A stretch of 64,000 nt of DNA, taken from positions 80,405 to 144,404 of IMG/VR virus record IMGVR_UViG_3300047567_000058; one strand, given 5' to 3'. Both the position numbers and the translations under genes were made by a program. Every line of letters starts with the position of its first letter. The stretch's first letter is position 1. Below the pieces are notes generated by a model. The model was not told the origin of the DNA. It made no database searches and saw only the letters and a list, made by a program, of their open reading frames with translations. The DNA comes from a virus (taxonomy: Duplodnaviria; Heunggongvirae; Uroviricota; Caudoviricetes). Below, one piece after another: positions 2,743 to 61,414 of this stretch.

Positions 2743-2769
2743 AAGTGTCCTTTCACCCCAATCGAGGGG

Positions 2770-2803
2770 AAATAAAAATAAAATCCCGGATGCTGTCCGG
2801 GAT
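2770..2803 (-). terminator. intrinsic terminator after tmRNA/tRNA-Leu
   Basis: Hairpin ATCCCGGA/TCCGGGAT followed on minus strand by a T-rich tract. Confidence 0.7.
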
Positions 2804-2813
2804 ATCGAACGCA

Positions 2814-2898
2814 TGGTGCGCGAAACTGGAGTTGAACCAGCATGCTTTTGGGGCAGCGGCTTCTGAGACCGCAGCGTATACCATTTCGCCATTCGCGC
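2814..2898 (-). tRNA. tRNA-Leu(CAG)
   Basis: Cloverleaf, loop CTCAGAA, long variable arm, encoded CCA. Confidence 0.93.
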
Positions 2899-2899
2899 A

Positions 2900-3312
2900 T
2901 GGTGGACCTGAGGGGAATCGAACCCCTGTCCGAAGGTTCCATCAAATAGTCACTACAGCTTGTTTGGCGTTTGTAATCACGGCGCATCTACGCCAACGGA
3001 ACTGACGCCGTGATAGCAATCGGCGATAACCGTTTTCCGTTCCCGTTTGCCATGGGACCGGAAGCGTCGGTCTTTTTGTGACGTCACTCCCCGCGTTGGA
3101 GACGTAAACAACGCGGATGACGTGCCATCGGTCCCGCAGGATCGACGAGCCCCAGACTAGCTGAGGTCTACGCCTTAGGCAGCGTAGGCATAGCTACGGC
3201 TTGCGCCGTAGTTATAATGATAACCGTTAGCGATTATTGGGCTTGGTGTATTAGGCTCACCGGGCCGCTGCGACTAAGATCTGGTCGCCTCCGTCAAAAC
3301 CTGGGCAGGCCC
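2900..3312 (-). ncRNA. ssrA: tmRNA; tag ANGYHYNYGASRSYAYAA*
   Basis: 5' GGGCCTG pairs with 3' CAGGTCC-A-CCA with G3.U70; T-arm GGTTCGATTCC; TTTGACGG near 5' end; ATAATC then GCT resume codon and an 18-codon tag ending YAYAA-TAA. Confidence 0.93.
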
Positions 3313-3658
3313 GACAGAGAATGGTTTGATGCGGTGTTTTCCTTCGCCGTCGTTTCCCTTCCGCAGAGCCTCAGCACGCCTTTGGCACTAGAATGTCGCC
3401 GGCGCACCTAGCTGTTTTTGCATGGAACCGAATAATTGATTTATGGACATCGATGCAGTCATATGCGGAGTTTTCTGAGCCAGTCCACGCCGTTTTACGA
3501 GCGCTCCTTGTGACTCAGCGTTCCGTGTTTTCTCACGGGGCTTGATCTCGGTTATCACGCCAAGAATCGGCCTGCCTTTGTGATATCGGCGCAGGCAATC
3601 GCGCCTAATCTGACCACCATCGGCCGTATCGCCGGCCGATGATGCAATCATTCGAAAT

Positions 3659-3735
3659 TGGTTGCGGGAGTGAGAGTCGAACCCACTATTTTCAGCTTAT
3701 GAGGCTGATAGGATACCCGGTTCCGTATACCCGCT
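3659..3735 (-). tRNA. tRNA-Met(CAT), initiator-like
   Basis: Loop CTCATAA; fMet-like acceptor (A)GCGGG/CCCGCA-A-CCA with 1:72 mismatch. Confidence 0.85.
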
Positions 3736-3741
3736 TGTATT

Positions 3742-3770
3742 ATGATACAGCGAGTTTCGCGTTAAATCAA
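3742..3770 (-). promoter_or_regulatory. sigma-A/70-like promoter for tRNA-Met/tmRNA unit
   Basis: TTGATT-N17-TATCAT just upstream of tRNA-Met. Confidence 0.65.
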
Positions 3771-4705
3771 TGCCAAGGATACGTATCGAGAATCTTCTTG
3801 ACGACCTTGACGACGGAATCGTCGTTGAGGATATCCTTGACAGGAGGGATGTAGAAGTTCATCTGGCCGGCGATTGCGCCAATGGTGTCGGTGAGCTTGT
3901 TCATGAGATCCTTGTCAAGAGCATCGCTGATGATGAGCGCCGCGGCCAATTGGTCAGACGTGATCTTGGTAGCAGCGACCGGGGCAGGCGCCGGAGCGGG
4001 ATTAGCCACCTGGGAGCTAGCCTGAGTCTGAGCCGTCGCTTGGGCTGGGGTTGATGCCGCGACCGGAAGCTGAGCCGGAATGGTAACGTTGCCAGACGCA
4101 TCGACGATCTCAAGGCGGGCACGGACGTCATTTGACAGAGCGGTGTCGTTGCAATTGATATCCTCGATGGACTCTTCGGTCCCTTTGCAGATGCAATTGC
4201 ATTCCTGGCATATGCGCTGGATATCTGCTTTGGTGATGTCATCGAAGGTGCATTTGTCACAGTTGTTGTTGCCATACGCCGCTTTGCAGTGGTGGCAATA
4301 GACGTTTCCATCTTCCGGGATGTATGCGCGAAGCGCGTCTTTGTCATCGAAATAGAGAACGAATGCAATCGGGCATTCCCAATCGCCTCCGGCAGTAACC
4401 CATAAAACGTTGGTGCCTCCGATGTCTTCGAACGCGGCGCTCTCGACGGAGCAGTTATCTGATCCGTCAGGACGGCCGATATCGAGGTTCTCGAAGTCGA
4501 ATTGGATCTTCTGAAGGTCTTTCATAGTCTGAAAGAAATCGCAGCATGAGAACACCATGTAACTGATATCAGTGAAGTTATTGCTGTATTGCTGGATGTC
4601 AGAAACGGAGCTACCTAAAGCATTTGCGTGGCTTTTGATGAACGCGGCATATTTGCTTTTGAAAATATCCGGAGTGACTCCGGCTTGGATCTTGCGATTT
4701 GGCAT
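3767..4705 (-). CDS. hypothetical protein (AGGDWE...RAYIP..GN motif, Cys cluster, Ala/Pro linker)
   Basis: 312 aa ORF, SD-like AAGGA upstream. Confidence 0.75.
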   Translation of the reverse strand: MPNRKIQAGVTPDIFKSKYAAFIKSHANALGSSVSDIQQYSNNFTDISYMVFSCCDFFQTMKDLQKIQFDFENLDIGRPDGSDNCSVESAAFEDIGGTNVLWVTAGGDWECPIAFVLYFDDKDALRAYIPEDGNVYCHHCKAAYGNNNCDKCTFDDITKADIQRICQECNCICKGTEESIEDINCNDTALSNDVRARLEIVDASGNVTIPAQLPVAASTPAQATAQTQASSQVANPAPAPAPVAATKITSDQLAAALIISDALDKDLMNKLTDTIGAIAGQMNFYIPPVKDILNDDSVVKVVKKILDTYPWH

Positions 4706-4737
4706 AATTTTTTTATTTTTCCTTAAAGCCCGCAGGC

Positions 4738-5415
4738 TTACTTCTTGGCATCGCCGTTATACGCGGCGTGCATCTCTTTGACGTCTTCGTCAAGGATCGA
4801 TTTCATCTCTTCGCATCTAGCCTCGATGTCATTGTATTGATCGGTGACGCCTGAGATGAAGTCCTTCCCGCATTTGACGTGGAGGGCGCAATATAGAAGA
4901 ATCCCGGAAACGATCGCGAACGCCGCCGCCGGGGCGATGAGATACCAGACGTCTTTTCTGATGACGGCCGCCGCGATGATCAGCGCGATCGCCGCTAGCG
5001 CGATGACCCCGGCCGAGATGTAAAGAGCCACTCTGGAGCGGCGCTTCTTCGTTACGGCTTTCGGATCGATGATCGTATAAAGATAATCGGCTTCGTCTTT
5101 CGCCTCGGAATAATGGCTCTCATAGAGATGGTATTCGCGCTCGGCGGCATACACCTCAGGATGCTTCACTCTGGTGAATTTGAGATCGACTTGCTCGTAT
5201 ACGACGTTTCTTTGGACGTATCCTTCGTCGTCAACGAAATACTTCGACGGCTTGCTGCTTGTCTTGAACTTCTGAGATTCAAGCTTTCATCCGAATTGGG
5301 ACAGATACTCGATCTTGGCATCGGCTTCTTTGACCGGGAGGTTGATATCCATGGTCTCGACAACCGGAGTCTTAGCCGCAACCAATGGTGGTTGGGCTGA
5401 ATCTTGCTGTGGCAT
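4738..5415 (-). CDS. two-TM membrane protein interrupted by one in-frame TGA (5287-5289)
   Basis: ATG 5415 (MPQQDS...YLSQFG*KLESQKFK...VKHPEVY) is in frame with track ORF 4738..5169; single TGA at codon 43. Confidence 0.7.
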
Positions 5416-5600
5416 AATTTTTATTTTTTTCCTTTCGGTGCACCAGAAAGCCGCCCCAGTTATACTGCGGGGCGGCCGGTCAGTGATCGCGGCTTACGGA
5501 ATCGCACCGTAATTTTCGTTGTAAGGGCTGGCGTGCACGATCTGCCTGCCCGCAACACGATGAGCTTATGCAGCTCTTTGCCGCAACTACATTATACTAG

Positions 5601-6281
5601 TCATTCGATGAACATGTATATGCGGCTGGGCTTAATGGTTCTGACGCCGTTTTTGTTTTTGCTCATCGCGGATCCGATGATCCTAGCCATCGCTTCGTAT
5701 TCGGCTAACGTCATCGACGTCACGTTCTTCGGCCACGGATAAACGTCTTTTGAGAATACCTGCTTGCGCGGCTTTGCCGTGTAAACAGTGACGATGCCGT
5801 GATGAGCCAATGACGCATTGACGTCTTTCGCCTTTAGAACGCCTGGATAATTTTCGGCATATTCTTCGATAGACTGCGTCCAGAACACGTCGAACAAGAT
5901 CTTAAGATTGGCGAGGTCCGTGATGTCGATGTCGACGCTTCCTTCGGCCCATTCTCTCAAACTGGCTATTCCGGCATCGTCTAAGCAGACGACTCCGCTA
6001 TTGCGGTCTTGCCCATAATCTTCAGGCATGTCAGTTCCAAAGAAGATCTTATAGGATTCGGTATTCTCGAACGACACGCCATCCTCCTCATGCAGCAAAG
6101 CGTCGGCCGCAAACCTCTGATGAGTTTTGTAGCTTTCGATGTCTGCCGATTTGGACTTGATGAATTCGAGCACTTTGTTTGCGGCTTCGATCGACGATGC
6201 CGTATACGCGGACCAGTGCCAATATCCGGCGGCAATGTTCTTGCCTCCTTCTTTGATGGTGATAACTAATCTTTGGCCCAT
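5601..6281 (-). CDS. hypothetical protein (MGQRLVI...YWHWSAYT)
   Basis: 226 aa ORF with GGAGG SD. Confidence 0.8.
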   Translation of the reverse strand: MGQRLVITIKEGGKNIAAGYWHWSAYTASSIEAANKVLEFIKSKSADIESYKTHQRFAADALLHEEDGVSFENTESYKIFFGTDMPEDYGQDRNSGVVCLDDAGIASLREWAEGSVDIDITDLANLKILFDVFWTQSIEEYAENYPGVLKAKDVNASLAHHGIVTVYTAKPRKQVFSKDVYPWPKNVTSMTLAEYEAMARIIGSAMSKNKNGVRTIKPSRIYMFIE

Positions 6282-6292
6282 ATCAGACCTCC

Positions 6293-7618
6293 TTAAAGAA
6301 TCAAGTCCATCATCACCGAATTAAATTGTTCGATGGTCATGACTTTCTGCTCATCTACCAGCATGCGTTTTAGATCATCCTGGCCGCCTTTGGTGAAGTC
6401 AAGGATTAGCAGACCCTGGCTTGTGGTTTCATCCCCATAGCCTCCGCCGCCTCCACGGTAGTCCTTATCCAAAAGGTTTCCCATATTGATGACGAGTCTG
6501 TCGACGGTCTTGCCATCTCCGTAATACGATGAGTTGGGAATGCCCATGACTTCGAATCCGGGGAGAGTCTTGACGATTGCTGATTTTAGGAAGATCGTCT
6601 CGTTGCAGTTAAAGTACATATACGGATTGGTGTTTTCTTTGCCGGATCTGCCGGACCCGAATGACCTAAATCCTCCGCCGCGCTCTCTCTGGCGAACATA
6701 ACGATAGAACTTGATCATCCCAGGCATGGCCGCGAACTTAGACTCTGTATAGGCCTTCGACACCTTCGGATGCTTATTGTCGGAGCCGATGAATATGCCT
6801 TCCTTGATCTTATGAGGAAGGTAGGTCTTGTCTTCTGAGACGATCTCGGAATGGCCGCTTTTGTCTAGCCTTGTTTCGAGGCCGGCGATGTCTGGGTCGT
6901 ATCCTGTCGTGATAGACACCCCGTTGGAGCAGGCGATGATGTTGTTGATGGCGTCATCCTCCTTCTTCATCGTCAAATACGCATGGTCGATCATCTTGTC
7001 GTATTGGCTGTAGGCATCTTTAAGATGCTCGCTTCCATAAAACACCTTGGCTATAGTCTCGTGTATCTTGGCCTTGAGGGCTGCGCTGTCTCCGATGCAG
7101 CTCTTCGGAAGCTCATCGACGACATGAAGCCCTCTTCGATAATTCTCCATCGACTTGAACGAGAATGCCGGAAGATCGAGATCTTCGATGCTGTTCTGAA
7201 GCGACGATCTGATCTTGTCGTGGAAGTCATAATACGGATTGACGGCGATCAGATCCCCGTAGGCGTCGTTGATAAGGCCTCCGTTGATGCCGACCATGCA
7301 AAACCTGATCTTGCCCCAGGCCAATCCGTTGGTGATCATGTCGTTTGCGCGGCCTTGGTTGCATCCGACGGAATCGAGAATCGTGTTGACTTGCTTGTAC
7401 AGAGGCTCAAGCGTCCCGATCTGGGCTTGGACGACTTTGCCCTTTCCGTTGTAAGGCATGATCTTCCCGGTGCCGGAATCGACCATGACCATCGGAACTT
7501 CAGGATGGGCTTTGAGCGTATTGTAGAATAAATCGGCGAGCTCCTTAGTAAGATCGCGTTCGATCTTCCTGCACTCATTCTGATGAGACAGATATTCGTC
7601 TATTACTGAATTGTCCAT
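6293..7618 (-). CDS. hypothetical protein
   Basis: 441 aa ORF, coding-like composition. Confidence 0.8.
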   Translation of the reverse strand: MDNSVIDEYLSHQNECRKIERDLTKELADLFYNTLKAHPEVPMVMVDSGTGKIMPYNGKGKVVQAQIGTLEPLYKQVNTILDSVGCNQGRANDMITNGLAWGKIRFCMVGINGGLINDAYGDLIAVNPYYDFHDKIRSSLQNSIEDLDLPAFSFKSMENYRRGLHVVDELPKSCIGDSAALKAKIHETIAKVFYGSEHLKDAYSQYDKMIDHAYLTMKKEDDAINNIIACSNGVSITTGYDPDIAGLETRLDKSGHSEIVSEDKTYLPHKIKEGIFIGSDNKHPKVSKAYTESKFAAMPGMIKFYRYVRQRERGGGFRSFGSGRSGKENTNPYMYFNCNETIFLKSAIVKTLPGFEVMGIPNSSYYGDGKTVDRLVINMGNLLDKDYRGGGGGYGDETTSQGLLILDFTKGGQDDLKRMLVDEQKVMTIEQFNSVMMDLIL

Positions 7619-7659
7619 ATAGAAATTATTTTATTTTTTCCTTTCTTTGAAGCCCGGCG

Positions 7660-8235
7660 TCAGATCTGAAGATCTACCGTCAGCTCATCGGCCTGCATAG
7701 ATAGATCCTCGCTTCCGAGATTCTTGATATCGTCGAGCGATAGCTTGGCGTCTTTGTCGGTCCCTGAATAAAACGACGCCACGACTTGCTCGGTCGATTC
7801 CCTGACGATGGCGACGACGACTTTAGGCTTGAAGTCTTCCGCAGACGACGATCGGCTTGTCATCAGCGTCATCAACATAAGGACGTTGTTCGATGGATCG
7901 AAACGCCTGCAGATTACGCTAAGGCCTTTCTCGTTGGATTTGAAGAAGTCCTTGCCGATCATCCAATTGCGCCATCTGATGTATCCCATCGATTCCAGAT
8001 CCTTGTAGATGATGCTTGACGAGATGTCGTCGAACGAGACTTTTAGCTCTTTGGAGCTGCCTTCGCTGTCTCGGACGTCCATCCATTTGCATTTTAGCTC
8101 AGTTCCTTCTTCGTCTTCGCGGCCGTATGTCTTGACCGAAATCACGTCTGGGTAGGATTTGATTAGTTTTTTAAGCTCGTCGTCTTCGCTTACAGATTCC
8201 ATGATCTGCTTGATGGTGAATCCTTTGCTGTCCAT
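7660..8235 (-). CDS. hypothetical protein, paralog of 8255..8776
   Basis: 191 aa ORF; shares DL..xGY..WR.WMI.K.F and C-terminal motifs with neighbour. Confidence 0.8.
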   Translation of the reverse strand: MDSKGFTIKQIMESVSEDDELKKLIKSYPDVISVKTYGREDEEGTELKCKWMDVRDSEGSSKELKVSFDDISSSIIYKDLESMGYIRWRNWMIGKDFFKSNEKGLSVICRRFDPSNNVLMLMTLMTSRSSSAEDFKPKVVVAIVRESTEQVVASFYSGTDKDAKLSLDDIKNLGSEDLSMQADELTVDLQI

Positions 8236-8254
8236 AGCGATCTCCTTTCTAAAA

Positions 8255-8776
8255 TCAAATGCTAAGACTCATCGCGATCTGATCAGATTCGATGCTCAGC
8301 CTGTCGTTTCCTAGAAGCTTGATCTGATTAAGCGATATCTTGACATCTTCGAGATCTGGCGAACAGAACGATGCCCGTAGGCCTTTGTAGCGTATCGTAA
8401 TCAAAACGCTGGGGTTGTCCTTTGGAACCCCGCCCCAGCCAAGCACGTTCTCGATATCCGTTAGTGACGTAGTCGAATGTATGATATCTAAATCAATATG
8501 AATTCCTTTGGCGTTCCTCAAGAATTCCTTGCTGATCATCCAGTCGCGCCATTGGGCATAACCGGATTTCTTCAGATCTTCGATCACATCCGTCGCTGAG
8601 ATGTCATCAAGGCTGCTGGCATCGATGTAGCGTGTGCATGTATTCCAGAAGCATCTTGCTTGGCATTTTCTCTTATTGTCTAGCATGTACGCCTTGATAG
8701 TAATCATTTCTGGGGCGCCTTTTGGAGCTCTCTTTTCCGAGGCGATTCGGCGCAAAACAAAACCTTCGTCTTCCAT
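8255..8776 (-). CDS. hypothetical protein, paralog of 7660..8235
   Basis: 173 aa ORF; see neighbour. Confidence 0.8.
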   Translation of the reverse strand: MEDEGFVLRRIASEKRAPKGAPEMITIKAYMLDNKRKCQARCFWNTCTRYIDASSLDDISATDVIEDLKKSGYAQWRDWMISKEFLRNAKGIHIDLDIIHSTTSLTDIENVLGWGGVPKDNPSVLITIRYKGLRASFCSPDLEDVKISLNQIKLLGNDRLSIESDQIAMSLSI

Positions 8777-8965
8777 GATAGTATATGCCCTTTCCGACCT
8801 GGAAATATTTTAATTTTCTTGAGGCCTTAAACAACGAATTTCAAGCGCTTATTCTCCTACCCTTTTATTTCGCGCAGGCCTGTTGATCCTTGCCGCGTTT
8901 CCGTGGTCTGATCCGAGTTTCCCGGTCTTTAGCCGGTCCAAGGGTACAGGTCTTTAGTATCGTAT

Positions 8966-9053
8966 TGGCGGAAGGATAGGGGTTTGAACCCTAGAGGGAT
9001 TGCTCCCTGCCGGTTTTCAAGACCGGTGCCATCAACCACTCGGCCATCCTTCC
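8966..9053 (-). tRNA. tRNA-Ser(TGA)
   Basis: Loop CTTGAAA, long variable arm, G73-CCA. Confidence 0.93.
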
Positions 9054-9055
9054 AC

Positions 9056-9132
<77 letters not shown>

Positions 9133-9239
9133 GAACGAACGTTGAGCGGACTTACAATCGTCCTTCGCTCACGATTATTATATATCTTGTATCGGCAAAA
9201 TGACTACTACTATAAACTAATTTAGCGGTTGCTTTAATC

Positions 9240-9269
9240 AAAAAAAAGAACCGCATACGCGACTCTTAT
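9240..9269 (-). terminator. intrinsic terminator
   Basis: AAGAGTCGC-GTAT-GCGGTTCTT followed by a T run on minus strand. Confidence 0.6.
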
Positions 9270-9276
9270 TTTTAGA

Positions 9277-9373
9277 TGGTAGTCGGGGCGGGACTTTAAC
9301 CCACATTCACTGATTGTATCAGCTTTTACATTCAATTATAAGTTGAACTCTCTAAACATTGAGATACCCGACT
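9277..9373 (-). tRNA. atypical tRNA-Ile(TAT)-like, 97 nt
   Basis: Acceptor AGTCGGG/CCCGACT-A-CCA; anticodon arm TTCAA-CTTATAA-TTGAA; long variable region; T-loop TTAAAGT. Confidence 0.6.
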
Positions 9374-9377
9374 ATGC

Positions 9378-9453
9378 TGGTGGAACTTAGGGGGATCGGA
9401 CCCCTGACCTCCTGCTTGCAAAGCAGGCGCTCTCCCGGCTGAGCTAAAGCCCC
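9378..9453 (-). tRNA. tRNA-Ala(TGC)
   Basis: G3.U70, loop TTTGCAA, T-loop TCCGATC. Confidence 0.92.
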
Positions 9454-9531
9454 ATTAAGGCAAGCTATTGAGGGCTTGCCATTACCCTGCGCGTTTCTCG
9501 GCCTTTTGGGGTACCGCCCCTCTGGCCGATC

Positions 9532-9605
9532 TGGAGCGAGATACGGGAATCGGACCCGCGTATTCACCTTGGAGGGGTGATGTTCTACCATTGAACAAAT
9601 CCCGC
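9532..9605 (-). tRNA. tRNA-Gly(TCC)
   Basis: Loop CCTCCAA (C33), U73-CCA. Confidence 0.88.
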
Positions 9606-9671
9606 GCGACACCCCTGGATGGGATCATAGATATTGTAGTATCTATTGCCGATTCCGTCCAGGGATTTATT

Positions 9672-10421
9672 TTATTTTTTCTTCGCAGCGAGGTATCCGC
9701 AGTTGCGGAGCGCCTGGGCGAAGCAGTCGCAGAAGACGCGGCGATACTTGTACATATTGCCATCGTTCTCATTGACTCTCATCACATGGACGAGCAGTTT
9801 GTCGATCTTGTCGTATTGGTTGCCCTTGGATCCCGGGAAGTGGATGTCCGCCGAATCGCTCCTCGAGACGCTGGATCCCATCTCGGTCGCCGGATCTCCG
9901 ACGAGAAGGATGTGGAAGGTGTCGCGATGATGGTATTTGGCCCCGGGATTGTCCGGAGCGGCTTTGATGATGCCGACGTACATCGTCGACGTTTGGCCGG
10001 CGATGGTCATCTTGACGTTGACCGAATTGGGGTCGCTCATCAAGGCGCTGTCTTTGTCGGCGTCGCGCTTGGCGTATTTGGAATGGATGATCTCCTGCTT
10101 GCTTGCGGCATGCGCCTTGGCGGCGTCCTCTTCGCTGCGGTCAGGGGTCTTATCCTCGAATTGGCCTTCCGGATCCTTGCCTTCGAGAAGCGTTTGCTGC
10201 GGCTGGGGATTGGCCTCAGCCGGAGCTGGCTTCGCCTCTTCTTCGAGGCGGTTGCGGATTTCGTGGTCGAGCTCGGACAGGGCGTTGATCGCCCCTAGGG
10301 CAGACACCGATTGCGCCTCGTTTGTCTGTTGGGCGTTAAGCTCGTATCTCTTGGCGGTCGTCATGGCTCCGATGAGAGCCAGGATCTCCGACACTTCTGT
10401 GGTCTTATTCATAAAATTCAT
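9672..10421 (-). CDS. hypothetical protein
   Basis: Track ORF 9672..10445; ATG 10421 has AAAGGA SD. Confidence 0.75.
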   Translation of the reverse strand: MNFMNKTTEVSEILALIGAMTTAKRYELNAQQTNEAQSVSALGAINALSELDHEIRNRLEEEAKPAPAEANPQPQQTLLEGKDPEGQFEDKTPDRSEEDAAKAHAASKQEIIHSKYAKRDADKDSALMSDPNSVNVKMTIAGQTSTMYVGIIKAAPDNPGAKYHHRDTFHILLVGDPATEMGSSVSRSDSADIHFPGSKGNQYDKIDKLLVHVMRVNENDGNMYKYRRVFCDCFAQALRNCGYLAAKKK

Positions 10422-10441
10422 TTGTCCTTTCTTCGGCGATG

Positions 10442-10699
10442 TCACGCGCCGGCTTTGCTGGTCTTCAATTCGCTGTTCGTGAAGTCGTAGTCGACGATGG
10501 CGTCGCCTCCGAACTTCTTGCGCAGCGCGCTGAGCTCAGCCAAAATGATGTCGATCTGCTGTTTGTACGCGTCATGATCAGGATCATCGCGCTCGTCGTC
10601 GACGCGCATGAACATCCTTGACAGATAATCGTACGCGTCATTGATGGTGAATTGAGCGATCTGTATGCACAGGTCTCTCTTGATTTCGGCTTTCTGCAT
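10442..10699 (-). CDS. hypothetical protein
   Basis: 85 aa ORF, GGAGG upstream. Confidence 0.7.
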   Translation of the reverse strand: MQKAEIKRDLCIQIAQFTINDAYDYLSRMFMRVDDERDDPDHDAYKQQIDIILAELSALRKKFGGDAIVDYDFTNSELKTSKAGA

Positions 10700-11287
10700 T
10701 CAGCGTCCATGATGACGTCCTCCGACCGACTCGGGGTTATCGGGTCCCATATCTTCTCGAATGTGCTTTCTATAGGCGAGAATTTATTGACGTAATCGCC
10801 GCTGTCAAGGCGATAGTTCCTATGAGGGGTGTCGCTCCACGTTAGCTTGCTGGCGTATTCGTGCTTGACGGATTTCTCATAGCAAGCTTTGCATATGTAC
10901 AAGACATACCCGCTCGTGATGTAAGACGACGGCTTTCCGCAAAGGGCGCACACCGATTCTGAGACGTCTTCGTATTTCATGACGATCTCCTCGGTTGCCT
11001 CATTGCCTCCGCTGTCATACCAGCAAAGCGTTCCGTATTTCTCTTTCACCTGCTCCACCTGGTACTTCTCCAGGAGCCCATCTTTCTTAAGCTGGGCTTT
11101 CAGCTCCTTGCAGAGCTTCACTCCGAATGCCTTTCGCCATCCGTCTGGGATGTCATCGAGGTACGTGTAGCGGTAGTCATGCTTTGCCAAAGCGTTGCCG
11201 CAATAATCTTCGGGAGGATGCAGAAACGGGAACCGTTTGATTAGGATGTAGTTCCCTGAGGATTTTAAAAATATTTTCCATGAACAT
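10700..11287 (-). CDS. hypothetical protein with CxxC (frameshifts near 11255 and 10743)
   Basis: SD GAAAGGA-ATG at 11287; removing one G at 11254-11256 gives MFMENIFKILRNYILIKRFP into track ORF; motif QVKEKYGTLCWY...CALCG. Confidence 0.6.
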
Positions 11288-11340
11288 TCCTTTCTAGTCA
11301 CAAGTATCATATATCGTTCATGCGCGATTTGCCAGAGATA

Positions 11341-11940
11341 TCAGATTTCGACGTTAAGAAGGGCTGTTGCGATAGCTGGGTTTTCCTGCTCTGACTTCGG
11401 GAAGGAAGCCACTATGCTTCGCAGAAGCCTTGCGCTTGTTGTGACGCTGCAGGTATGGATCTCTATCAGCTGAAGCTTGATATGGCTCGCATCCCATTTC
11501 TGGGCGCACTTGACGTATTCGTTGATGTCTGACGTTACTGAAAGAGTGAGCGGATCACTGTCCTTGATCCTCACTCCGAAGTCTATCGATGTGCGACAAG
11601 ACTTGGCAGTGATGCCGACGAACATGTCTATTTTGCAATTGGGGGCTTTTGGCGTTTCCATTATGATGTAGCTTTTGCAATTCCCAGGATTGGAAATGAT
11701 GAATTTGCTTGTCGCTGCGTCATAGGCATCTTTGACGGCTGGAATCATTGGAATGTATTCATCGGTAACAGCCGGAAATATCAAAACCGATGGCGATTTG
11801 CCGGAGATATCGATGTCGTTCTTAACAAGAATCATGTTATACGACTTGATCTTTCCGGTATCGATTTTGCCATCATGGAGCTTGACCATCCCGGCGATAT
11901 GCCAATCGTCTGGGCTGTTTTCCCATTTCCGATCTGACAT
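11341..11940 (-). CDS. hypothetical protein
   Basis: 199 aa ORF. Confidence 0.7.
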   Translation of the reverse strand: MSDRKWENSPDDWHIAGMVKLHDGKIDTGKIKSYNMILVKNDIDISGKSPSVLIFPAVTDEYIPMIPAVKDAYDAATSKFIISNPGNCKSYIIMETPKAPNCKIDMFVGITAKSCRTSIDFGVRIKDSDPLTLSVTSDINEYVKCAQKWDASHIKLQLIEIHTCSVTTSARLLRSIVASFPKSEQENPAIATALLNVEI

Positions 11941-12015
11941 TCACAAACGATTTTTGGCGATCGATCATGAAAAGGCCATTAGACTCGTTAGCCGTTCCAA
12001 TGTATCCTCGGTCGC

Positions 12016-12417
12016 TCATTTCTCGTCTTCCCAGGAAATCCCGCCGCCTGAGCAGTTTAGTTTCTTGAAATCCTCGAGTTTGTGCTTAAGGATATCTATT
12101 TCGGCATCGGCTCTCGTATTAGATTCGTTCTTTCTATTGATGGCATCATCGATCTCTTTCTGAATCTTGGAAATCACCGTTGAGGCATATCCTTGATCAG
12201 ACAACGCATTTATGTCTTGCTTTGATCCGCTGTATTCGAAATTGTAAAAATCTTCATTGATCGGGAATCTTCCGAATTCCAAAACATAGATGTCTGGTAA
12301 GTCTTCATCATATTCATGCTTATGTGCTGCTAAAACAGCATAAATCTTGTCGCATCCTCTCATCTCGTTGGTCTTAGTATTTTTGATGATGTCCATCTCA
12401 AATAGCCTTCTTTCCAC
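12016..12417 (-). CDS. hypothetical protein
   Basis: 133 aa ORF downstream of a sigma-A-like promoter. Confidence 0.7.
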   Translation of the reverse strand: MERRLFEMDIIKNTKTNEMRGCDKIYAVLAAHKHEYDEDLPDIYVLEFGRFPINEDFYNFEYSGSKQDINALSDQGYASTVISKIQKEIDDAINRKNESNTRADAEIDILKHKLEDFKKLNCSGGGISWEDEK

Positions 12418-12423
12418 GACGAA

Positions 12424-12452
12424 ATGATACCATGCCTAGGAGCGGAGGTCAA
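12424..12452 (-). promoter_or_regulatory. sigma-A/70-like promoter
   Basis: TTGACC-N17-TATCAT with TG extended -10. Confidence 0.65.
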
Positions 12453-12460
12453 TGCTGAGG

Positions 12461-12492
12461 AAAAAATAAAATAAACCCCCGATCTCTCGGGG
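12461..12492 (-). terminator. intrinsic terminator
   Basis: CCCCGA/TCGGGG hairpin then T-rich tract on minus strand. Confidence 0.6.
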
Positions 12493-12572
12493 ATCTATCT
12501 TGGCGAGAACTTTCCCAGCCTAGAGGTGGACCGAATACCGGCTGCACGAATGCTGTCTTCAGCCCAAACGAA

Positions 12573-12890
12573 TCACTTCAATCCATTCAGCTTTGTCTGA
12601 AGAGCTGCTTTCTTCTCGGCATAGTCTGAAGGTCCGACATGATAATGAGCGTAATCGTATTCAAGATCTGATAGCTGATTTTTGATGGCTTGGATGGCGT
12701 TGTCTTTGGCGGGGATGTGCGACTGGATCATCGGGGCCGGCTTTCCGCCATTCTTAGCTCTGGCTTCCTCGTCTTTCTTCGGGTCCCCGGTAGGATTCCA
12801 TCCTTCAAGGATGCAGACCTCTTCCCAGGTTATGTTGTCCGGATCGTATCCGGCGCTGATCATTTTAGCGCATCTTTCGTTGTATGTCAT
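12573..12890 (-). CDS. hypothetical late protein
   Basis: Track ORF trimmed to MTYNERCAK; AACA-N6-TA motif immediately upstream. Confidence 0.7.
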   Translation of the reverse strand: MTYNERCAKMISAGYDPDNITWEEVCILEGWNPTGDPKKDEEARAKNGGKPAPMIQSHIPAKDNAIQAIKNQLSDLEYDYAHYHVGPSDYAEKKAALQTKLNGLK

Positions 12891-12905
12891 AGCAACTATC
12901 CTCCG

Positions 12906-12918
12906 ATAATCTATTGTT
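12906..12918 (-). promoter_or_regulatory. AR9-type late promoter motif
   Basis: AACAATAGATTAT. Confidence 0.65.
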
Positions 12919-12943
12919 GCGGTCGTAAAAAAAGATCGGCCAG

Positions 12944-13309
12944 CTATTTGCCAACCGATCTTTGATACCTCTTGTAGAATCTGAAGCCGATTCTCTCGGC
13001 TTCGTCTTCTATGCCAGGCGATCTCAGGTCTAACCCTGAATTCGCCTGAACTGAATGCGTCAGCTCGTGCATCAGAAGATGCACTGAGTTGGCCATTGAG
13101 GTTTTCTCGATGTAGACGTCCAGGCCATCTATGGAGCGATATCCTGTGGTCTTCCATCCTTTGATAGGATGCGGAAACATCCTATTGAGCTTTCTCAACT
13201 CGACGACGTGAAGGCGGATGCCACCACGATCTATCTCATCAAGAAGCTCAGAGTATGCTTGATCGCTTGCTTTGCATAGCGATCTGCAGACGGACACGAC
13301 TTTGGTCAT
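12944..13309 (-). CDS. putative zincin-like metallopeptidase domain protein
   Basis: LLMHELTHSVQ (HExxH) plus downstream IEDEAE; SD GAAAGGAGG before ATG 13309. Confidence 0.5.
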   Translation of the reverse strand: MTKVVSVCRSLCKASDQAYSELLDEIDRGGIRLHVVELRKLNRMFPHPIKGWKTTGYRSIDGLDVYIEKTSMANSVHLLMHELTHSVQANSGLDLRSPGIEDEAERIGFRFYKRYQRSVGK

Positions 13310-13365
13310 GATCCATCCTCCTTTCTTCAATTAAATCATATATTTTCGAACTGCCCGTGATAACA

Positions 13366-13392
13366 AGAAAAGCCCAAGATATCTCTTGGGCT
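13366..13392 (-). terminator. terminator closing the main tRNA array
   Basis: AGCCCAAGA/TCTTGGGCT hairpin then TTTTCTT on minus strand. Confidence 0.75.
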
Positions 13393-13400
13393 ATTGTGTC

Positions 13401-13486
13401 TGGTGCCCTCGGCAGGACTTGAACCTGTACGACTTTGGATCACTGCCACCTCAAAGCAGCGCGTATACCAATTTCGCCACGAGGGC
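13401..13486 (-). tRNA. tRNA-Leu(GAG)
   Basis: Loop TTGAGGT, long variable arm, CCA. Confidence 0.92.
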
Positions 13487-13492
13487 ATAGAA

Positions 13493-13567
13493 TGGGAGGA
13501 CTCGTCGGTACTGACCCGGCTTTTTCCGATTCACAGTCGGATGCCTTACCTTTAGGCTAGAGTCCTC
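13493..13567 (-). tRNA. tRNA-His(GTG)
   Basis: Loop CTGTGAA, encoded G-1:C73; T-loop GTCAGTA. Confidence 0.85.
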
Positions 13568-13574
13568 ATCAGAA

Positions 13575-13649: not shown

Positions 13650-13652
13650 ATC

Positions 13653-52451: not shown

Positions 52452-52492
52452 AAAATAAAAATAAAATCGGACTGATTTCTCAGTCCGACTTG
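52452..52492 (-). terminator. intrinsic terminator
   Basis: TCGGACTGA/TCAGTCCGA hairpin then T-rich tract on minus strand. Confidence 0.65.
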
Positions 52493-54778: not shown

Positions 54779-55911
54779 TGGAGGCCTCCTGTTTTGGCGT
54801 GATCGTGTTTCTAATGACGTCAAGCGATATGTCTTTGCCTTTCTCTTCGAAGATGTACTTATGGATGACATCCTCGACTGGGAGAACCCCATCGAAGATG
54901 TATTTGTACTTGTCGAATCTCGTGTCGTCTGATTCCTGGAGAGACTCAGGCTTGTCTTGGACTTTGATGAATGTCTTGATCTTCGGATTGACCGAGTATT
55001 TTATTCTCAGCGCCGTGATCGTGTCGGACGGCAATCCGTCGAGATCGGCTCTTGCGAAGTCATATTGTGATGCGGCAGCCTCAATCGCGTTGATGAGGTC
55101 TCCGATGTGCTGGATCGTCTTATCGCAGTTGATCGACGCGCAGTCGATGATCCCGAACTTCGGGCAAAGGTTGTTGTCGATGAACTGCACCTTGTAGTCG
55201 CCGGTCTCGGTGTCAACCTCATAATAGACGAATCCTCTTGCCGAGATATCCGTGTAATCCCAGGCGCTGAACGATCCGGAATAAAATATTTTATCCTGCA
55301 TGACATGGCGGCTGTGGATGTGGCCGAACGTGGCGAATCCGTGCTCAAGCGATTCCTTCCAGTCGTCATACATGAAGACCGGGGCGGTCTGGATGTCGGT
55401 TCTGGCAGCCTTGACGATCATTCCTTTATAGGCAAGGAAATCCCAGGTGCCGTGTCCATGGATGATGTTGTATTTCTTGGCCATGTATGGCCCGTAGAAT
55501 TCCTTCGAATTGATCGGATACTCTTCGGGAGCGTATAAGACATGCATCCCGCAGATATCCTCATCAGCCAGGCTTTGGATGAACTTGAAGTCAAGGCCAT
55601 CGGGGGCGGCTTGCTCGAGGACGCTTCCCTGCATCATGTCATGGCTCATCGTTTCCTTCGACGAGGCGCAGCTTGATGCCTTTTCTGAGGCAAACTTCGC
55701 ACAAATCGTTGAAAAAGCCGATCGCATACAATGTTGACGATTCGGTTAGCGTGAGCTTCCTGTCGAAGTAATCTCCGTTTATGTTGATGATCTGAATGTC
55801 GTGAGACTCGACGAATGGCAAGAAGATCTTCTTCAGCTCATCGTACGTCCTTGCGGATGACGCGATGCCGAAATGAAGATCGTTAATCGCTATTCCCTTA
55901 ACTGTTGCCAT
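54765..55911 (-). CDS. sbcD: SbcD/Mre11-like metallophosphoesterase nuclease (frameshift at 55652-55654)
   Basis: NDLHFG, NGDYFDR, GTMSHD, HGHG, GHIH. Confidence 0.88.
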
Positions 55912-56859: not shown

Positions 56860-57204
56860 CTATTTATCTCCTTCGACGGTATTGGGGGCAGTGTATCCAT
56901 CGGTGCTCTGGCTTGAGCTTATGCCGCTGATAAGCCTCGTGTATTCGCGCATGTACGCCGTCTCCATAGACAAGTCCGAGTTAAACGAAAGGTATTCTCC
57001 GTATTTAGAGTCGTAGACGATGACTTCGTCGGCATGGGATGATTTGTCTGAATTATAAGTGCGAAAAATATAAATATTTCCGCTGACCGGATCGATCTGG
57101 CTTCCGGAATTGGCCGATATCCTGTATCCGCCTATGCTCGGGTCCAGAGTCTTCGTGTATTTATCGGATTCAAGTATCGCGACTGCGTTGGTTATTCTTT
57201 CCAT
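56860..57204 (-). CDS. hypothetical protein
   Basis: 114 aa ORF. Confidence 0.7.
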   Translation of the reverse strand: MERITNAVAILESDKYTKTLDPSIGGYRISANSGSQIDPVSGNIYIFRTYNSDKSSHADEVIVYDSKYGEYLSFNSDLSMETAYMREYTRLISGISSSQSTDGYTAPNTVEGDK

Positions 57205-57214
57205 GATATTTCCC

Positions 57215-59363
57215 TCACAGCATCACCTGATACCCGGTTACGGAATTGGCCGAGCTTGAAATCGATATGGAAACGTTGCTGCTGTATTTGAAAGACCCGC
57301 CGTGGTAATAGAACGGAAGATGGACGTAATAGTATTTGTTGGAGGAGTCCTTCTCAGGGACGATTCCGTATTCGCAATCGATCAGCGACGCGGCTGACGA
57401 GGCTGTCGAAGATCCATAGACGTAAACGTCAAACGGAGACGATGTGCTCATTTCCATATAGACTGCCATGAACGTTCCGCTTAAGATGGGAAGCCTTCCG
57501 GATCCAGATGCCTTAATGGTCATGGCTGGCTGATTGTCAGCCATCTTCTTGAGATTGGATTTTATCGTGTGGATATTGTTTTCTATGGCCTGGGCTGAGC
57601 TTGAGGACAGATATGCCATGTAATTGCTTATGGCTGTTGATACTGAGCTGGCTATCGAATCGAGGGAATTATTTAAATTTCCCTGCAAAACATACTCGGA
57701 TCCTGACGTCGACACCGATATCTCACCGTCTATGACGGCTTGTCCGACGTAGCTGTCGTACGCAAGATCATACGCTATTACGTCATGCGTCTTGGATATC
57801 GACGACGCCGTATCGCATGCGGACATTACGTCGCAATACGATATCGGTGAATTAGTCGGAGAATATATCCCGGAGTAATTATCGATGATATTGACGTCAT
57901 CTGAAGAAGTGGCTGACCCAGGGATTCAAATACGTGCTGTCAGACACGCTTGGGACGTCTGGCGTGTTGTAATCCTCGATGCAGATCTCATTATATAGAT
58001 CTCCAGAAGACGACTTCATGCCGTCGACATCTTTTGACGATGTCAGACTTCCGCCGTTGAATATTTCAACAAATTCGTTGGCTAGCTTAAGGTTATGCTT
58101 GTAGATATGCTTCCTAAGAAGATACCCATTGACATTGAACGACGTTTCTTGAGTGGCTATATCGAAGTATCTCATTCTGTTCATTCTCGGAAGAACTTCG
58201 CAGTATTGGCTAGACAAAGCGCATCCCGATGCGTTGGTCGTGGAATTGAATGCGACGCTTGCCACGATTCCGGTCGAGTTGATAGAAGCCGAGTAATCTA
58301 TGCCAGGTATAAGCTTCTTTCCTTTGTAATAGATGACGAAGTCCGACATCATGTGGAATTTGAATACGGATATGTCGCTGAATTTTTCAATCAGAGAGCT
58401 TGACTCAAGCTGCTTGCTTCTAGGGCATAGGAAGATCTTATATGAGCTGCTGATTCCAGTCAGAGACGCATACACGACCGACTTGGCTGGATCCGACTTG
58501 GTGTCGCTGGTTTTAAGCAGCTTGAAATAAGTCGATTGCTTCGATACGAGATTGGCATCGTTGCTTCCGATGGCCGTCTGAGAGATGAATTCGTTAGCCG
58601 ATGACGAATCGATCAGCGTAAGAGAATACGATGACGCGTTAAGGACTCGTTCATACCCGCCGATTGAGTCAACGGCTATGACATCGTAATCCGATGTCGA
58701 TAAGGAGTCGAATCCTGGCCATGAGTAATCTGTGCTTATTGATCCTATGAATGCCTTTGACGTGCTATCGTAGGAAAGTTCGAATCTAGGAGCGGAGTAA
58801 TCCGACGTGCTTTGCGATCTTTGATTCTTATGGTCTGTGACGTATGTGAAGGATGCCGAAGAATCAGCGTCGTCTATCTTAGCCTCATATTGGGCGTTGG
58901 CGTTTCTGTTGTACGCCCGATCGATCAGGATATAAGCGCTTTTATCGACATTGATCTCAGCATCCCGATATGATTCTGAGATATCTTTATCCCGTTGTAA
59001 TAAACGTACGGAACGAAATCGAACATTGCCGGAGATCTCGACTGGCTCCCGTAATCCGGGATCTTCAGAACATAGAATTGGCTGAACAGATCTGAGCTGC
59101 TGATGGCCCTTGTTATTCGATTTGATAAGGCTCGTGTAAAGAGATAAGAAGTTATCGGTTAGCTGACTTTGCATGCTGCTCTGATAATTCGGAAACTGCA
59201 GGAGATAGCCATAGGCGTCCCCTCCGAAGATTCCGTTGCTTACGGACATAGTCACGTTATCGCTGGCGCTGCTAGCGGTGCTCTGATACAGCTGTATCAG
59301 AGTCGGCATGTCGCTTATGCTAGCTTGCGATATGGCAATAGGCCCGTACTTCTTTATCATCAT
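57215..59363 (-). CDS. large Ser-rich, likely structural protein (indel at 57921-57923, possibly others)
   Basis: Removing one base joins 57897..59363 to 57215..57826 (YLNPGSATSSDDVNIIDNYSG...VMSACD). Confidence 0.65.
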
Positions 59364-59385
59364 TAGCTTATCCGCCTAAGACTAT

Positions 59386-60456
59386 TCATCTAATCTTTGA
59401 GACAACCGCGGCATGCAAGGCCTGAAGCCCGTCTTTGGCTAGATCCGGGGCTCTGTTGGAAAGACGATTCATGTTTCCGAGTCTTGCGTTATGAAGAGCG
59501 GCAAAGAGATAATGCAGCAAATACGGGACGTATTCTATTGCCAGATAGCATCCTTCTCCGCAGGTTCTCTGCCACGACGCCGTGAAATCATTGTAATTGG
59601 CCGCGGCTTTGTACATCGAAGATGAAAGCTGCGTGATGAAGTCATTGGCGTTGTCATACTTGATGTCGTCAAGAGTGTCTTCGTAAAGCTTGAGAGAATC
59701 GAATGTGGTGTCATAGCGGCAGCCATATTCCCATGCAAGTTTGTCAGTGGTATCCGATGGGGCCATCCCAAGATTATGGATCATGAAGAACTTCGCCGCG
59801 GTGTAGTAAATCGCGTCGTTGTTGAATGAGTCTCCGACAAACGGGCTCTTGCATGCCATGTTGAATGAGATGTAGAACAGCCCGGTATACAATCTGACGA
59901 GGTTTGAAAGAACGTCGGTCTTTCTCAAAATATCGTCTCCTTCTCCGCAGCAAAGCATATGATATGCGATGACTCCGGTCTCAAGGCAGGATATAAGATC
60001 GCTCAAAGACTCGAGGCCTTCGTATTGAGATCCGTCCTCGCTCCACTTTCCGATGCGATACATGTTTAGATAAACGCACTTTCCGACGTTGCGCGGAGCG
60101 GAAAGCTTATTTGACAGCGCGGTTGTCTGAGGAGCCGCCACCGGGGAAGGCGCGATGATGAACGGCATCGATGGAGGGACGTCATCTCCGCCAAGGTCAA
60201 AGAGATAGATGCTGGGGACGGATGATGTGTAAAGATCAAGCGCTTCCATAAGAAGCGGGAGAGCCGATGACTTTCTCTTGATCTTTAGCTTCTCGATCTC
60301 GAGGGCGATGTTATCGGGGCGGATAAGGCCGATTCCTTTGACCAGCTTCGGAATCGATGCGGTTATGCGCTGCTCAATGCTTCCGGATCCGGTGTCTCCG
60401 TTATTCGATGCGTTCCCGAAGATCTTGTATGAATACGACTGACTTAGCATTAACAT
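59386..60456 (-). CDS. hypothetical late protein
   Basis: 356 aa ORF behind late promoter motif. Confidence 0.75.
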   Translation of the reverse strand: MLMLSQSYSYKIFGNASNNGDTGSGSIEQRITASIPKLVKGIGLIRPDNIALEIEKLKIKRKSSALPLLMEALDLYTSSVPSIYLFDLGGDDVPPSMPFIIAPSPVAAPQTTALSNKLSAPRNVGKCVYLNMYRIGKWSEDGSQYEGLESLSDLISCLETGVIAYHMLCCGEGDDILRKTDVLSNLVRLYTGLFYISFNMACKSPFVGDSFNNDAIYYTAAKFFMIHNLGMAPSDTTDKLAWEYGCRYDTTFDSLKLYEDTLDDIKYDNANDFITQLSSSMYKAAANYNDFTASWQRTCGEGCYLAIEYVPYLLHYLFAALHNARLGNMNRLSNRAPDLAKDGLQALHAAVVSKIR

Positions 60457-60481
60457 AGGTTCTATCCCCGATTATGTGCAG

Positions 60482-60550
60482 ATAATCAATTGTTCGAGAC
60501 GGCCTAAGCGCCCCTGCCAACTAGAACTTAGCGCTCCAACAATCGATTAT
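60482..60550. promoter_or_regulatory. divergent AR9-type late promoters
   Basis: AACAATTGATTAT (-, 60482-60494) and AACAATCGATTAT (+, 60538-60550). Confidence 0.7.
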
Positions 60551-60636
60551 CCACGAGGGTGGCATATGCCAGCATAGACAAAAGTCGCTGCCGTTAGTTT
60601 CCGGAGAAATAAAAAAATAAATCCAAGGAATCATCA

Positions 60637-61360
60637 ATGTCATCTTACAAAAGCAAGCATTCAGATCCTATTAGAGAGAACAAGAATCCTAACGTCGTGA
60701 TGTGCATCGATTTCAGCGATAACAAAGAGCAGCGCGAGCTTATCCGTCTGATGAATCAAAATGAGGCTCCTGTCATATTCTGCGAAGGATTGGCTGGGAC
60801 CGGAAAGACCTTCACCGCGGTCGCCGCGGCCCCTCGACCTCGTGATATTCAAGAAGAAATACTCCAAGATCTATTATATCCGAGAGCCGGTTGAGGTCGG
60901 GCATTCAATCGGATTCCTCCCTGGGGAGCTCGAAGACAAATACGGCGTATACCTCGACGGCCTTCAGGACAACATCGATCATATCCATGAATTCTGCCAG
61001 CTTCCGGTCAACGCGCTCAAAGACAAGATCGAATGCGTCCCGCCGGAGTTCGTCAGAGGAAGATCATTCGAGAATGCGATCATCATCGCCGACGAAGCCC
61101 AGAACTTCACTCTGACGACGATCCAGACCCTGATGACCAGACTCGGCAAGTACTGCAAGATCGTCTTCCACGGCAGCACCAACCAGATCGACGTAAAGGG
61201 CTTCACCAAGGAAAACAACGACTTCATGAAGTCATATGCCATCGTCAAGGATACGGGTCTCGTGTCATACGTCCAGCTTAAGAAATCCGAGCGATCGGCG
61301 GCATCTGCGATTCTCGATGAGGCTTTCGCTAAATACGAAGACAAGAAAGTCGATCAGTGA
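60637..61360 (+). CDS. phoH: PhoH-like ATPase (frameshift at 60830-60833)
   Basis: EQRELI, GLAGTGKT, IGFLPGELEDK, RGRSF, IIADEAQN, TRLG, QID. Confidence 0.9.
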
Positions 61361-61367
61361 CGTGCCG

Positions 61368-61414
61368 AAAAAATAAAAAAAGACCGGAGCATCGAATTGC
61401 ATCGGTCTCTTTTT
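61368..61414. terminator. bidirectional terminator
   Basis: GACCG...CGGTC hairpin with A and T flanks between convergent genes. Confidence 0.6.

Follow-up and report, generated by a model that had tools for sequence, protein, structure and literature searches.

A lattice of short A/T islands framed by G and C across an AR9/PBS1-like jumbo phage genome, a candidate DNA-level spacing signal

The DNA analyzed here, hereafter the window, is a 64-kb stretch comprising bases 80405-144404 of a 201,011-bp viral record with 50% GC (IMG/VR record IMGVR_UViG_3300047567_000058). Judged by its genes, which include split multisubunit RNA polymerases, the genome is that of an AR9/PBS1-like jumbo phage. Its closest named relatives are the Bacillus phages AR9 and PBS1 (36% identity in the beta-C subunit), and gene order near the beta-C gene agrees with AR9 g086-g089. 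The phage is present in wastewater samples. The record is 78% complete, and near-identical contigs are longer than it, reaching 219 kb. About 82% of the genes lie on the minus strand. Besides RNA polymerase subunits, the window codes for a UvsX-like recombinase, an SbcC-like protein, 41 tRNAs and a tmRNA. Distributed across these genes and the spacers between them are pure A/T runs of at least 14 nt, here called islands, which are bordered by G and C and evenly spaced.

An earlier note on this DNA had listed 29 A/T runs in the window. Every one of the 29 starts holds a pure run of 14-17 nt, and a further 14-nt run is present at 33203-33216. The window total of 30 compares with a mean of 1.8 and a maximum of 5 in 60 first-order Markov simulations. 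In the whole genome (201,011 bp) there are 95 such runs. Counts fall from 99 runs of 8 nt to 47, 19 and 6 runs of 9, 10 and 11 nt, stand at 11 and 10 for 12 and 13 nt, and then rise through 10 (14 nt) to 34 (15 nt) and 39 (16 nt) before dropping to 12 (17 nt), with none longer. Run lengths therefore form a separate peak at 15-16 nt and not a geometric tail. As the sole A/T-only stretches of at least 14 nt in a 50%-GC genome, the islands are by composition its locally least stable duplex.

Nearly all islands of the genome carry the G(G)...C(C) flanks that the earlier note had described. In the window, the inner G...C pair is present in 26 of 30 runs and the full GG...CC in 17. Read on the A-rich strand, the adjacent 5' base is G in 95-100% and the next one out in 71-84%; on the 3' side the adjacent base is C in 67-93% and the next one in ~70%. 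The first three bases within the island are nearly always A and the last is usually T. There is otherwise no fixed sequence: the interior follows A3-7 T A3-8 T ..., with varying T positions, and TA-alternating sequences, the most meltable kind, are avoided. This frame is identical across upstream, terminator and intragenic islands, and conservation ends at the two flanking positions.

Spacing statistics, which the earlier note had proposed, indicate intervals far more even than chance. Genome-wide, the coefficient of variation (CV) is 0.50 versus 0.98 for random placement (0/5000 simulations match), and two intervals are shorter than 500 bp where 20 are expected. Within the window, intervals average 2021 bp (range 602-4113; CV 0.466), an evenness reached by none of 5000 random placements. 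The genome keeps an island at least every ~4 kb and seldom sets two closer than ~0.6 kb. We use the word lattice for this even spacing, with no strict periodicity implied.

Islands occur in all gene contexts. Between co-directional genes, the A-rich strand is sense in 36 and the T-rich strand in 15, nine of the latter directly after a GC hairpin. Eight islands lie in divergent intergenic regions and six at convergent gene ends, five of these with a hairpin. Within genes, 24 islands have the A-rich and six the T-richer strand in the sense orientation, and five of these six T-sense islands retain the G...C flanks. The earlier note had placed nine window sites inside coding sequences (CDSs) and had proposed a comparison with codon-preserving shuffles. 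All nine lie inside CDSs by our own gene calls, and those at 26673 and 35736 are intragenic also by public gene calls on a near-identical contig. The shuffle comparison gave a clear excess: 33 runs of at least 14 nt lie wholly inside called CDSs, against a mean of 3.2 and a maximum of 9 in 200 shuffles that preserved the proteins and, gene by gene, the codon usage.

The intragenic islands fill gaps in the lattice. With the 65 islands outside genes taken as fixed anchors, 28 of the 30 intragenic islands fall in anchor gaps larger than 3.7 kb; none of 10,000 random placements in coding DNA divided those gaps as evenly. Evenness suffers equally whether the six T-sense intragenic islands or six random sense ones are removed. 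In long genes the island tends to lie near the middle, at relative positions of 0.46-0.49 in three genes of 559-1303 aa. Protein alignment for an intragenic island gave orthologues ~18% identical with the island in an unconserved C-terminal tail, a divergence at which insertion and substitution cannot be told apart.

Upstream of genes, 44 islands are in the sense orientation. Many are 13-30 nt 5' of the ATG with the ribosome-binding site (Shine-Dalgarno sequence, SD) in between; two are instead set between an SD-like AAGG and the ATG, and five form codons 2-6 just past a start codon with a good SD. Altogether ~45 of the 95 lie within ~30 nt of a start codon, on either side of it. Placement before the SD, between SD and ATG, or after the ATG fits a rule of placing an island wherever it is cheap. 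Most genes have no island upstream.

Table 1. Islands, promoter motifs and selected genes of the window. Coordinates are window positions; the strand given for an island is its A-rich strand.
Feature	Position	Strand	Context
Island	2770-2784	+	T-rich on sense (minus) strand, after GC hairpin; predicted terminator U-tract ending tmRNA/tRNA-Leu unit
Island, 17 nt	4704-4720	-	A-rich sense; between AAGG and ATG of gene 3767-4705; 16 nt in variant L044
Island, 17 nt	5414-5430	-	A-rich sense; past predicted terminator hairpin, ends in small gene's ATG; 15 nt in L044
Island, 17 nt	7623-7639	-	A-rich sense; 4 nt 5' of ATG at 7618; 16 nt in L044
Island	8803-8817	-	26 nt 5' of ATG at 8776; flank AG in record, GG in L044
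Island	9665-9680	-	A-rich sense; 59 nt 5' of tRNA-Gly
Island	11262-11277	-	Codons 2-6 (M-E-N-I-F-K-I) of gene; early-type promoter just 5' at 11299-11315
Island	12461-12475	+	T-rich sense; right after hairpin, predicted terminator U-tract
Island	15243-15258	-	Within 129-nt spacer of tRNA array
Island	16698-16713	-	5 nt 5' of tRNA-Cys, first tRNA of array
Island	17953-17967	+	T-rich sense; right after strong hairpin, predicted terminator U-tract
Island	20533-20548	-	Contains RNA polymerase beta-N stop codon; separate predicted hairpin+T5 terminator after
Island	24354-24368	+	T-rich sense, no adjacent hairpin; leader, 17 nt before ATG at 24336; leader starts at early-type promoter 24450-24466 and runs through island in T-rich sense
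Island	26673-26687	-	Intragenic, sense (G-N-K-I-K-F), unconserved C-terminal tail of 242-aa gene; 99 nt before RNA polymerase beta-C gene
Island	29390-29406	+	A-rich sense; 15 nt 5' of ATG of plus-strand RNA polymerase subunit gene
Island	31803-31818	-	After predicted hairpin+T terminator; 60 nt 5' of ATG at 31742
Island, 14 nt, atypical	33203-33216	-	Intragenic; GG...CT flanks; weak member
Island	34044-34058	-	Divergent intergenic; 6 nt past motif of plus-strand late-type promoter at 34025, whose leader is therefore T-rich
Island	35736-35750	+	Intragenic; T-richer strand sense (E-K-F-Y-Y-S)
Island	39848-39864	-	32 nt 5' of late-type promoter at 39805
Island	43080-43096	-	Intragenic, sense; relative position 0.48 of long gene; gap filler
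Island	44458-44473	+	Intragenic; T-richer strand sense
Island	46474-46489	-	Intragenic, sense (E-N-N-N-I-F-P)
Island	49213-49227	-	A-rich sense; 17 nt 5' of an ATG
Island	52452-52467	+	U-tract of predicted bidirectional terminator past helicase gene
Island	55280-55294	+	Intragenic, near-palindromic; SbcD-like gene
Island	57064-57079	+	Intragenic; T-richer strand sense
Island	57667-57680	-	Intragenic, sense
Island	60607-60622	+	A-rich sense; 14 nt 5' of ATG at 60637, downstream of late-type promoter at 60538
Island	61368-61381	+	One arm of predicted bidirectional terminator, convergent genes
Early-type promoter motifs	9170-9186, 11299-11315, 13328-13344, 24450-24466	-	~12 more elsewhere in genome
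Late-type promoter motifs	12906, 33993, 37153, 39805, 44982, 47503, 50275, 60482	-	
Late-type promoter motifs	28999, 34025, 50345, 60538	+	
RNA polymerase subunit gene (beta-N)	20535-22118	-	Split
RNA polymerase subunit gene (beta-C)	24474-26573	-	Split
RNA polymerase subunit gene	29422-31098	+	
41 tRNA genes and tmRNA	2814-16692	-	Three blocks; main array of 34 tRNAs starts 5 nt past an island

Two strain variants with 97.4-97.5% identity keep every island; across 144 island bp they have 0 substitutions, against an expectation of about 3. Deletions of one or two A, four in all, bring the three 17-nt islands down to 16, 15 and 16 nt (Table 1), and a 16-to-15 allele occurs at 31812 (island 31803) in one run, so that lengths stay at 15-17. 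Contigs L004-L007 and L047, at least 99.9% identical, are too similar for conservation tests to have any power. Four wastewater runs carry an RNA-Seq label but are probably DNA; their contigs have flat cover, and no transcript starts, ends or strand were obtained from them.

The strain variants also differ in structure. Variant L044 is without gene 8255-8776 (variant 8252-8789), with a breakpoint 12 nt past island 8803, and variant contigs break at 20531, 20547 and 20556, that is, at island 20533. These coincidences (8789; 20531-20556) among a handful of breakpoints are suggestive only and too few to test. A strain variant has an insertion of ~1.1 kb at 17897 in one run, and a joint of 29279 to 31211, which would delete the plus-strand RNA polymerase subunit gene, is present in two runs.

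The lattice is specific to this lineage, because relative L015 (52% GC, RNA polymerase beta subunit ~55% identical) has both promoter types without it. This relative holds late and early-type motifs and ordinary hairpin+T terminators, and only four A/T runs of at least 13 nt in 22 kb. Relatives with a beta subunit ~50-57% identical are mostly of 26-35% GC, where A/T runs of all lengths are abundant; L011 (47.5% GC) has AR9-like ATATATTAT islands. Searching viral contigs with the exact island word returned 28 chance matches in AT-rich contigs (22-42% GC), none with a lattice. Neither a DNA-level search of a phage collection nor a single-protein search of viral contigs found relatives, close ones in the former case. 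A search of the literature on evenly spaced AT islands in phages found nothing specific.

Two promoter classes were recognized apart from the islands. The first, traced from GATATAT in a k-mer scan of intergenic DNA, is RATATAT(G/T/A)AT-N5-T-G, with 15-17 genome sites that are all on the gene strand and nearly all intergenic. Most are followed by a AAAGAAAGG-type ribosome-binding site and then by an ATG 19-24 nt after the G. Its architecture is that of the published AR9 early promoter, AAATATATATTAT-N6-G(+1) (PMC5312081). The second motif, (G)AACAATNNATTAT, has ~33 genome sites located 20-35 nt before ribosome-binding sites and agrees with the AR9 late consensus AACA-N6-TA/G (PMC5312081). Some late-type promoters stand back-to-back in divergent regions, and one makes up part of a hairpin. 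As the promoters of both polymerases are already accounted for, the islands are best read as a third cis element apart from early and late promoters. Island 11262, for example, is not the promoter of its gene, since that gene has an early-type promoter of its own just upstream.

We regard it as roughly an even call that the islands are a selected DNA-level spacing signal, and as rather doubtful that protein docking specifically is the way they are read. Taken together, our tentative interpretation, held a little short of an even call, is an orientation-blind duplex signal whose elements most likely serve as docking sites for a lineage-specific, shape-reading protein. The signal would be 15-16 bp (14-17) of uninterrupted A/T between 5'-GG and CC-3', read as a double-stranded island whatever its orientation. 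The A-rich strand would be put in the sense orientation only to spare messages long U-runs and proteins hydrophobic peptides. A lineage-specific DNA-binding protein could recognize the narrow minor groove of the A/T-only stretch together with its G:C borders, and the sites could be used as regularly spaced anchors or roadblocks that organize or insulate the roughly 220-kb genome. Such a protein would explain the phyletic pattern, the context-independent frame and the orientation-blind lattice, and the state of L015 fits a lineage-specific protein-and-site pair.

The earlier note had suggested binding sites for a phage protein that would organize, package or replicate DNA, or bubble-forming entry sites, a proposal that is supported in part. 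Its phage assignment, its intragenic copies and the look of a DNA-level signal are upheld. The DNA-level part of that proposal is strengthened because separate promoter motifs exist, intragenic islands fill gaps, and T-sense islands form the lattice equally.

There is precedent in mycobacteriophages. Cluster O genomes hold more than 30 copies of a 17-bp repeat over about 70 kb, one third of them within genes; their function is unknown and a protein binder is predicted (PMC4351075). The islands resemble these dyad repeats, and the Cluster A stoperators, in having dozens of copies genome-wide, ~1/3 of them intragenic, that are not tied to promoters (PMC4351075). Unlike those invariant, sequence-specific words, the islands have nothing in common but their composition, length and GG/CC frame. 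They are also evenly spaced and fill gaps, which has not been reported for either system.

Several observations weigh against a docking lattice. Hairpin-less intergenic islands are A-rich on the sense strand in ~36 cases versus 6, and an orientation-blind signal needs an added assumption to accommodate this. The inner sequence is asymmetric (A-rich) and not dyad-symmetric. Lengths of 15, 16 and 17 nt are all common and vary by strain, which a rigid dimer reading both clamps should not tolerate. One 7-kb hole interrupts the lattice (genome 50946-58005); near-islands with one G/C number only five genome-wide, and none of them lies in it. An HU-type gene (PF00216), the only reader family looked for, was not found in the 78%-complete record, and no reader candidate emerged. 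The gene calls themselves come from our own crude caller, run on a record with frameshift errors.

Transcription termination is the alternative with most in its favor, as some islands have the anatomy of terminators. About 20-25 of the 95 abut a GC hairpin and look like terminator U-tracts. This agrees with the earlier note, which had held that terminators cover only a minority of sites and had named five (2770, 12461, 17953, 52452 and 61368), each of which adjoins a GC hairpin. The hairpin is directly 5' of the T-run in 14 of the 21 T-sense or convergent islands and in a few A-sense ones, and is absent in ~70 others. On anatomy only, a hairpin-touching island is the U-tract, or the opposite A-tract, of a predicted intrinsic terminator, and several A-sense islands would supply the A-tract to a bidirectional terminator that carries a separate tail on its sense side. 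The islands could accordingly all be direction-specific transcription stops, where an RNA polymerase with the T-rich strand in sense meets a 15-nt U-tract and releases. Paired with a hairpin, the island would end an operon; without a hairpin and in the A-sense orientation, it would halt nothing but antisense or runaway transcription by the sigma-less phage polymerases. Longer unprotected stretches would cost more in antisense RNA, and even spacing would result.

We consider this unlikely, although part of the evidence suits it well. The U-tract islands include antisense-facing ones on hairpins with a sense-side T-tail of their own. The orientation rule in noncoding DNA is strong: the A-rich strand is sense unless a hairpin precedes, so a long U-run in the message appears disfavored, which makes an antisense-terminator reading attractive. 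Hairpin-free termination at oligo-T, in T-runs set in a GC-rich context, is a property of Pol III and archaeal polymerases. The islands share such G/C-flanked, hairpin-free T-runs, but most show their A-rich strand to sense transcription. Island density also fits the conserved-motif terminators mapped in phiKZ-type phages. Jumbo phage 201phi2-1, whose genome we take to be ~317 kb, would have about one terminator per 2.4 kb. Its 132 mapped terminators have conserved motifs, some lie right after promoters, and only 52 count as intrinsic (PMC11512511). In Pseudomonas phages, 9% of mapped terminators are antisense to genes (PMC10914365). About a quarter of the islands, as hairpin U- or A-tracts, are like intrinsic and bidirectional terminators, including those of phiKZ and 201phi2-1, and their density of ~1 per 2 kb is similar to that of mapped jumbo-phage terminators (PMC10914365, PMC11512511). 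Three quarters differ in being hairpin-less, most of them A-rich along the message, and G/C exclusion, fixed length and clamps set the islands apart from intrinsic terminators.

Other results are harder to square with termination. The six intragenic islands with the T-richer strand in sense are well formed and count in the lattice like the others. Three late-type promoters (genome 114429, 174404 and 72900) have a T-sense island 5-15 nt downstream and would fire straight through it. A U-tract needs neither G/C exclusion over 15-16 nt, nor GG/CC clamps, nor a ceiling on length. The genome also has ~25 ordinary hairpin terminators with a different, conserved tail close to TTTCTTTGCT, e.g. at genome 3490(-), 23321(+), 125429(-) and 175166(-), and islands are therefore not required for termination. 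This tail is reminiscent of conserved terminator motifs in phiKZ-type phages.

Islands might alternatively be replication opening or priming sites, at which the helix opens and a phage RNA polymerase or a divergent PolB starts primers. On this view each island would be the weakest duplex of its ~2 kb, the spacing would correspond to Okazaki fragments, and both strands would show the same GG...CC frame. No match to DnaG zinc ribbon, Toprim_2 or Prim-Pol domains was found in the 201-kb record (78% complete), while the phage has both a gene for an RNase H1 domain (genome 61696-62157, minus strand, beyond the window) and one for a DnaB-type helicase, a combination in favor of such priming. Iyer et al. 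describe this jumbo-phage group as being without both primase types and keeping RNase H1, and suggest priming by a polymerase or by the multisubunit RNA polymerases (PMC7824862). Single-stranded DNA can serve as a starting template for the AR9 non-virion polymerase, an ability with no known role (PMC7598289). Even ~2-kb spacing, a strand-symmetric frame, the orientation-blind lattice and tolerance of 15-17 nt all fit, and AT-rich relatives have such runs everywhere by composition.

Against priming, the 52%-GC relative L015 has no lattice at all, the most meltable TA-alternating sequences are avoided, no initiator sites lie beside the islands, and a primase could lie in the missing part of the record. 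The islands are like DNA unwinding elements of replication origins, e.g. the R-loop origins of T4, in being short, easily opened A/T DNA with stable borders (PMC3016281). Unlike T4 R-loop-type origins, which are few and beside promoters or initiator sites, the ~95 islands are without partner motifs (PMC3016281). We thus see only a slim chance that priming explains the islands. It is equally a long shot that the lattice maps the priming sites of a giant phage without a primase, in which a GC-clamped A/T bubble primes either strand every ~2 kb; if true, such a map would answer how group 1 jumbo phages prime DNA synthesis.

A promoter function, with islands as promoters of the virion RNA polymerase or as a third, middle class firing in the A-rich direction, appears very unlikely. 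Early promoters of all RNA-polymerase-encoding jumbo phages are indeed AT-rich motifs of roughly 10-13 nt. The 44 sense islands upstream of genes, many of them separated from the ATG by 13-30 nt that include a ribosome-binding site, would suit such a role, as would the islands 5 nt 5' of the first tRNA of the tRNA array and 15 nt 5' of an RNA polymerase subunit gene. The phage nevertheless has its own AR9-type early motif (~16 sites, with the N5-TG start signature) and late motif (~33), and the islands are without a fixed core or any conserved base past the CC. Thirty islands are intragenic and positioned by spacing. About 21 are set against a hairpin in the opposite sense, five come after the ATG, and two separate it from the SD. 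In the helicase/SbcD operon, which is homologous to AR9 early genes, islands occur only within genes. Only 17 homologues were found in the first 100 kb of AR9, and mapping of early and late classes onto them yields anecdotes, not statistics.

Identity with AR9-type early promoters in particular was rejected. The islands have no conserved ATATAT(T)AT core and no start-site G six nt past them, and their placement differs (30 intragenic, ~21 T-sense or convergent, 5 directly after ATG). They share with the early promoters of AR9/PBS1, phiKZ and phiR1-37 that they are A/T-only, at least 13 nt long, recurrent in a same-clade jumbo phage and often in sense orientation upstream (PMC5312081, PMC7598289). 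They differ from them in having no fixed core or start signal and in lying within genes, beside hairpins and at positions set by spacing.

Least probable of all is an action at the RNA level, with an A-rich unstructured tract every ~2 kb serving as ribosome standby or S1 enhancer, RNase site or Hfq site: ~45 of 95 islands are no more than about 30 nt away from a start codon and the sense strand is the A-rich one in most, but mid-gene copies are positioned by spacing, terminator and T-sense copies are unlike an A-rich RNA signal, GG/CC clamps on both strands go unexplained, and most genes have no upstream island.

Genome-wide lattices of cis sites, such as the Cluster O repeats, are known in phages but unexplained, and the island lattice is an unusually clean case. 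It is defined by composition and length with no fixed word, is separable from the two promoter classes of the phage polymerases, and keeps its even spacing at the cost of changed protein sequences. The lattice may mark some giant-phage process that depends on sites a few kilobases apart, for which genome organization, insulation of transcription with sigma-less polymerases and primer synthesis without a primase are candidates. About 95 defined sites are available at which such a process can be tested. When GC drifts from roughly 28-35% up to 50%, functional requirements for A/T can come into view that the AT-rich model phages AR9 and PBS1 do not reveal.

Other features of the window were recorded alongside. 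Contig L047 (99.9% identical) shows single-base differences at window 44079, 48765, 49173, 52184, 53575 and 55652, and its gene calls are longer and single (a DnaB-type helicase of 565 aa, a PIF1-type helicase of 447 aa and a protein of 709 aa); a few frameshift errors are thus probable in the record. Two minus-strand open reading frames (ORFs), 10442-10699 and 10465-11310, overlap in different frames and cannot both be called, which may reflect a frameshift error or a programmed shift. A reverse-transcriptase gene (RVT_1; window 22212-23639) lies between the two beta-subunit halves, and occupies the same place in all sampled relatives (L009-L015, beta subunit ~50-57% identical) except L011.

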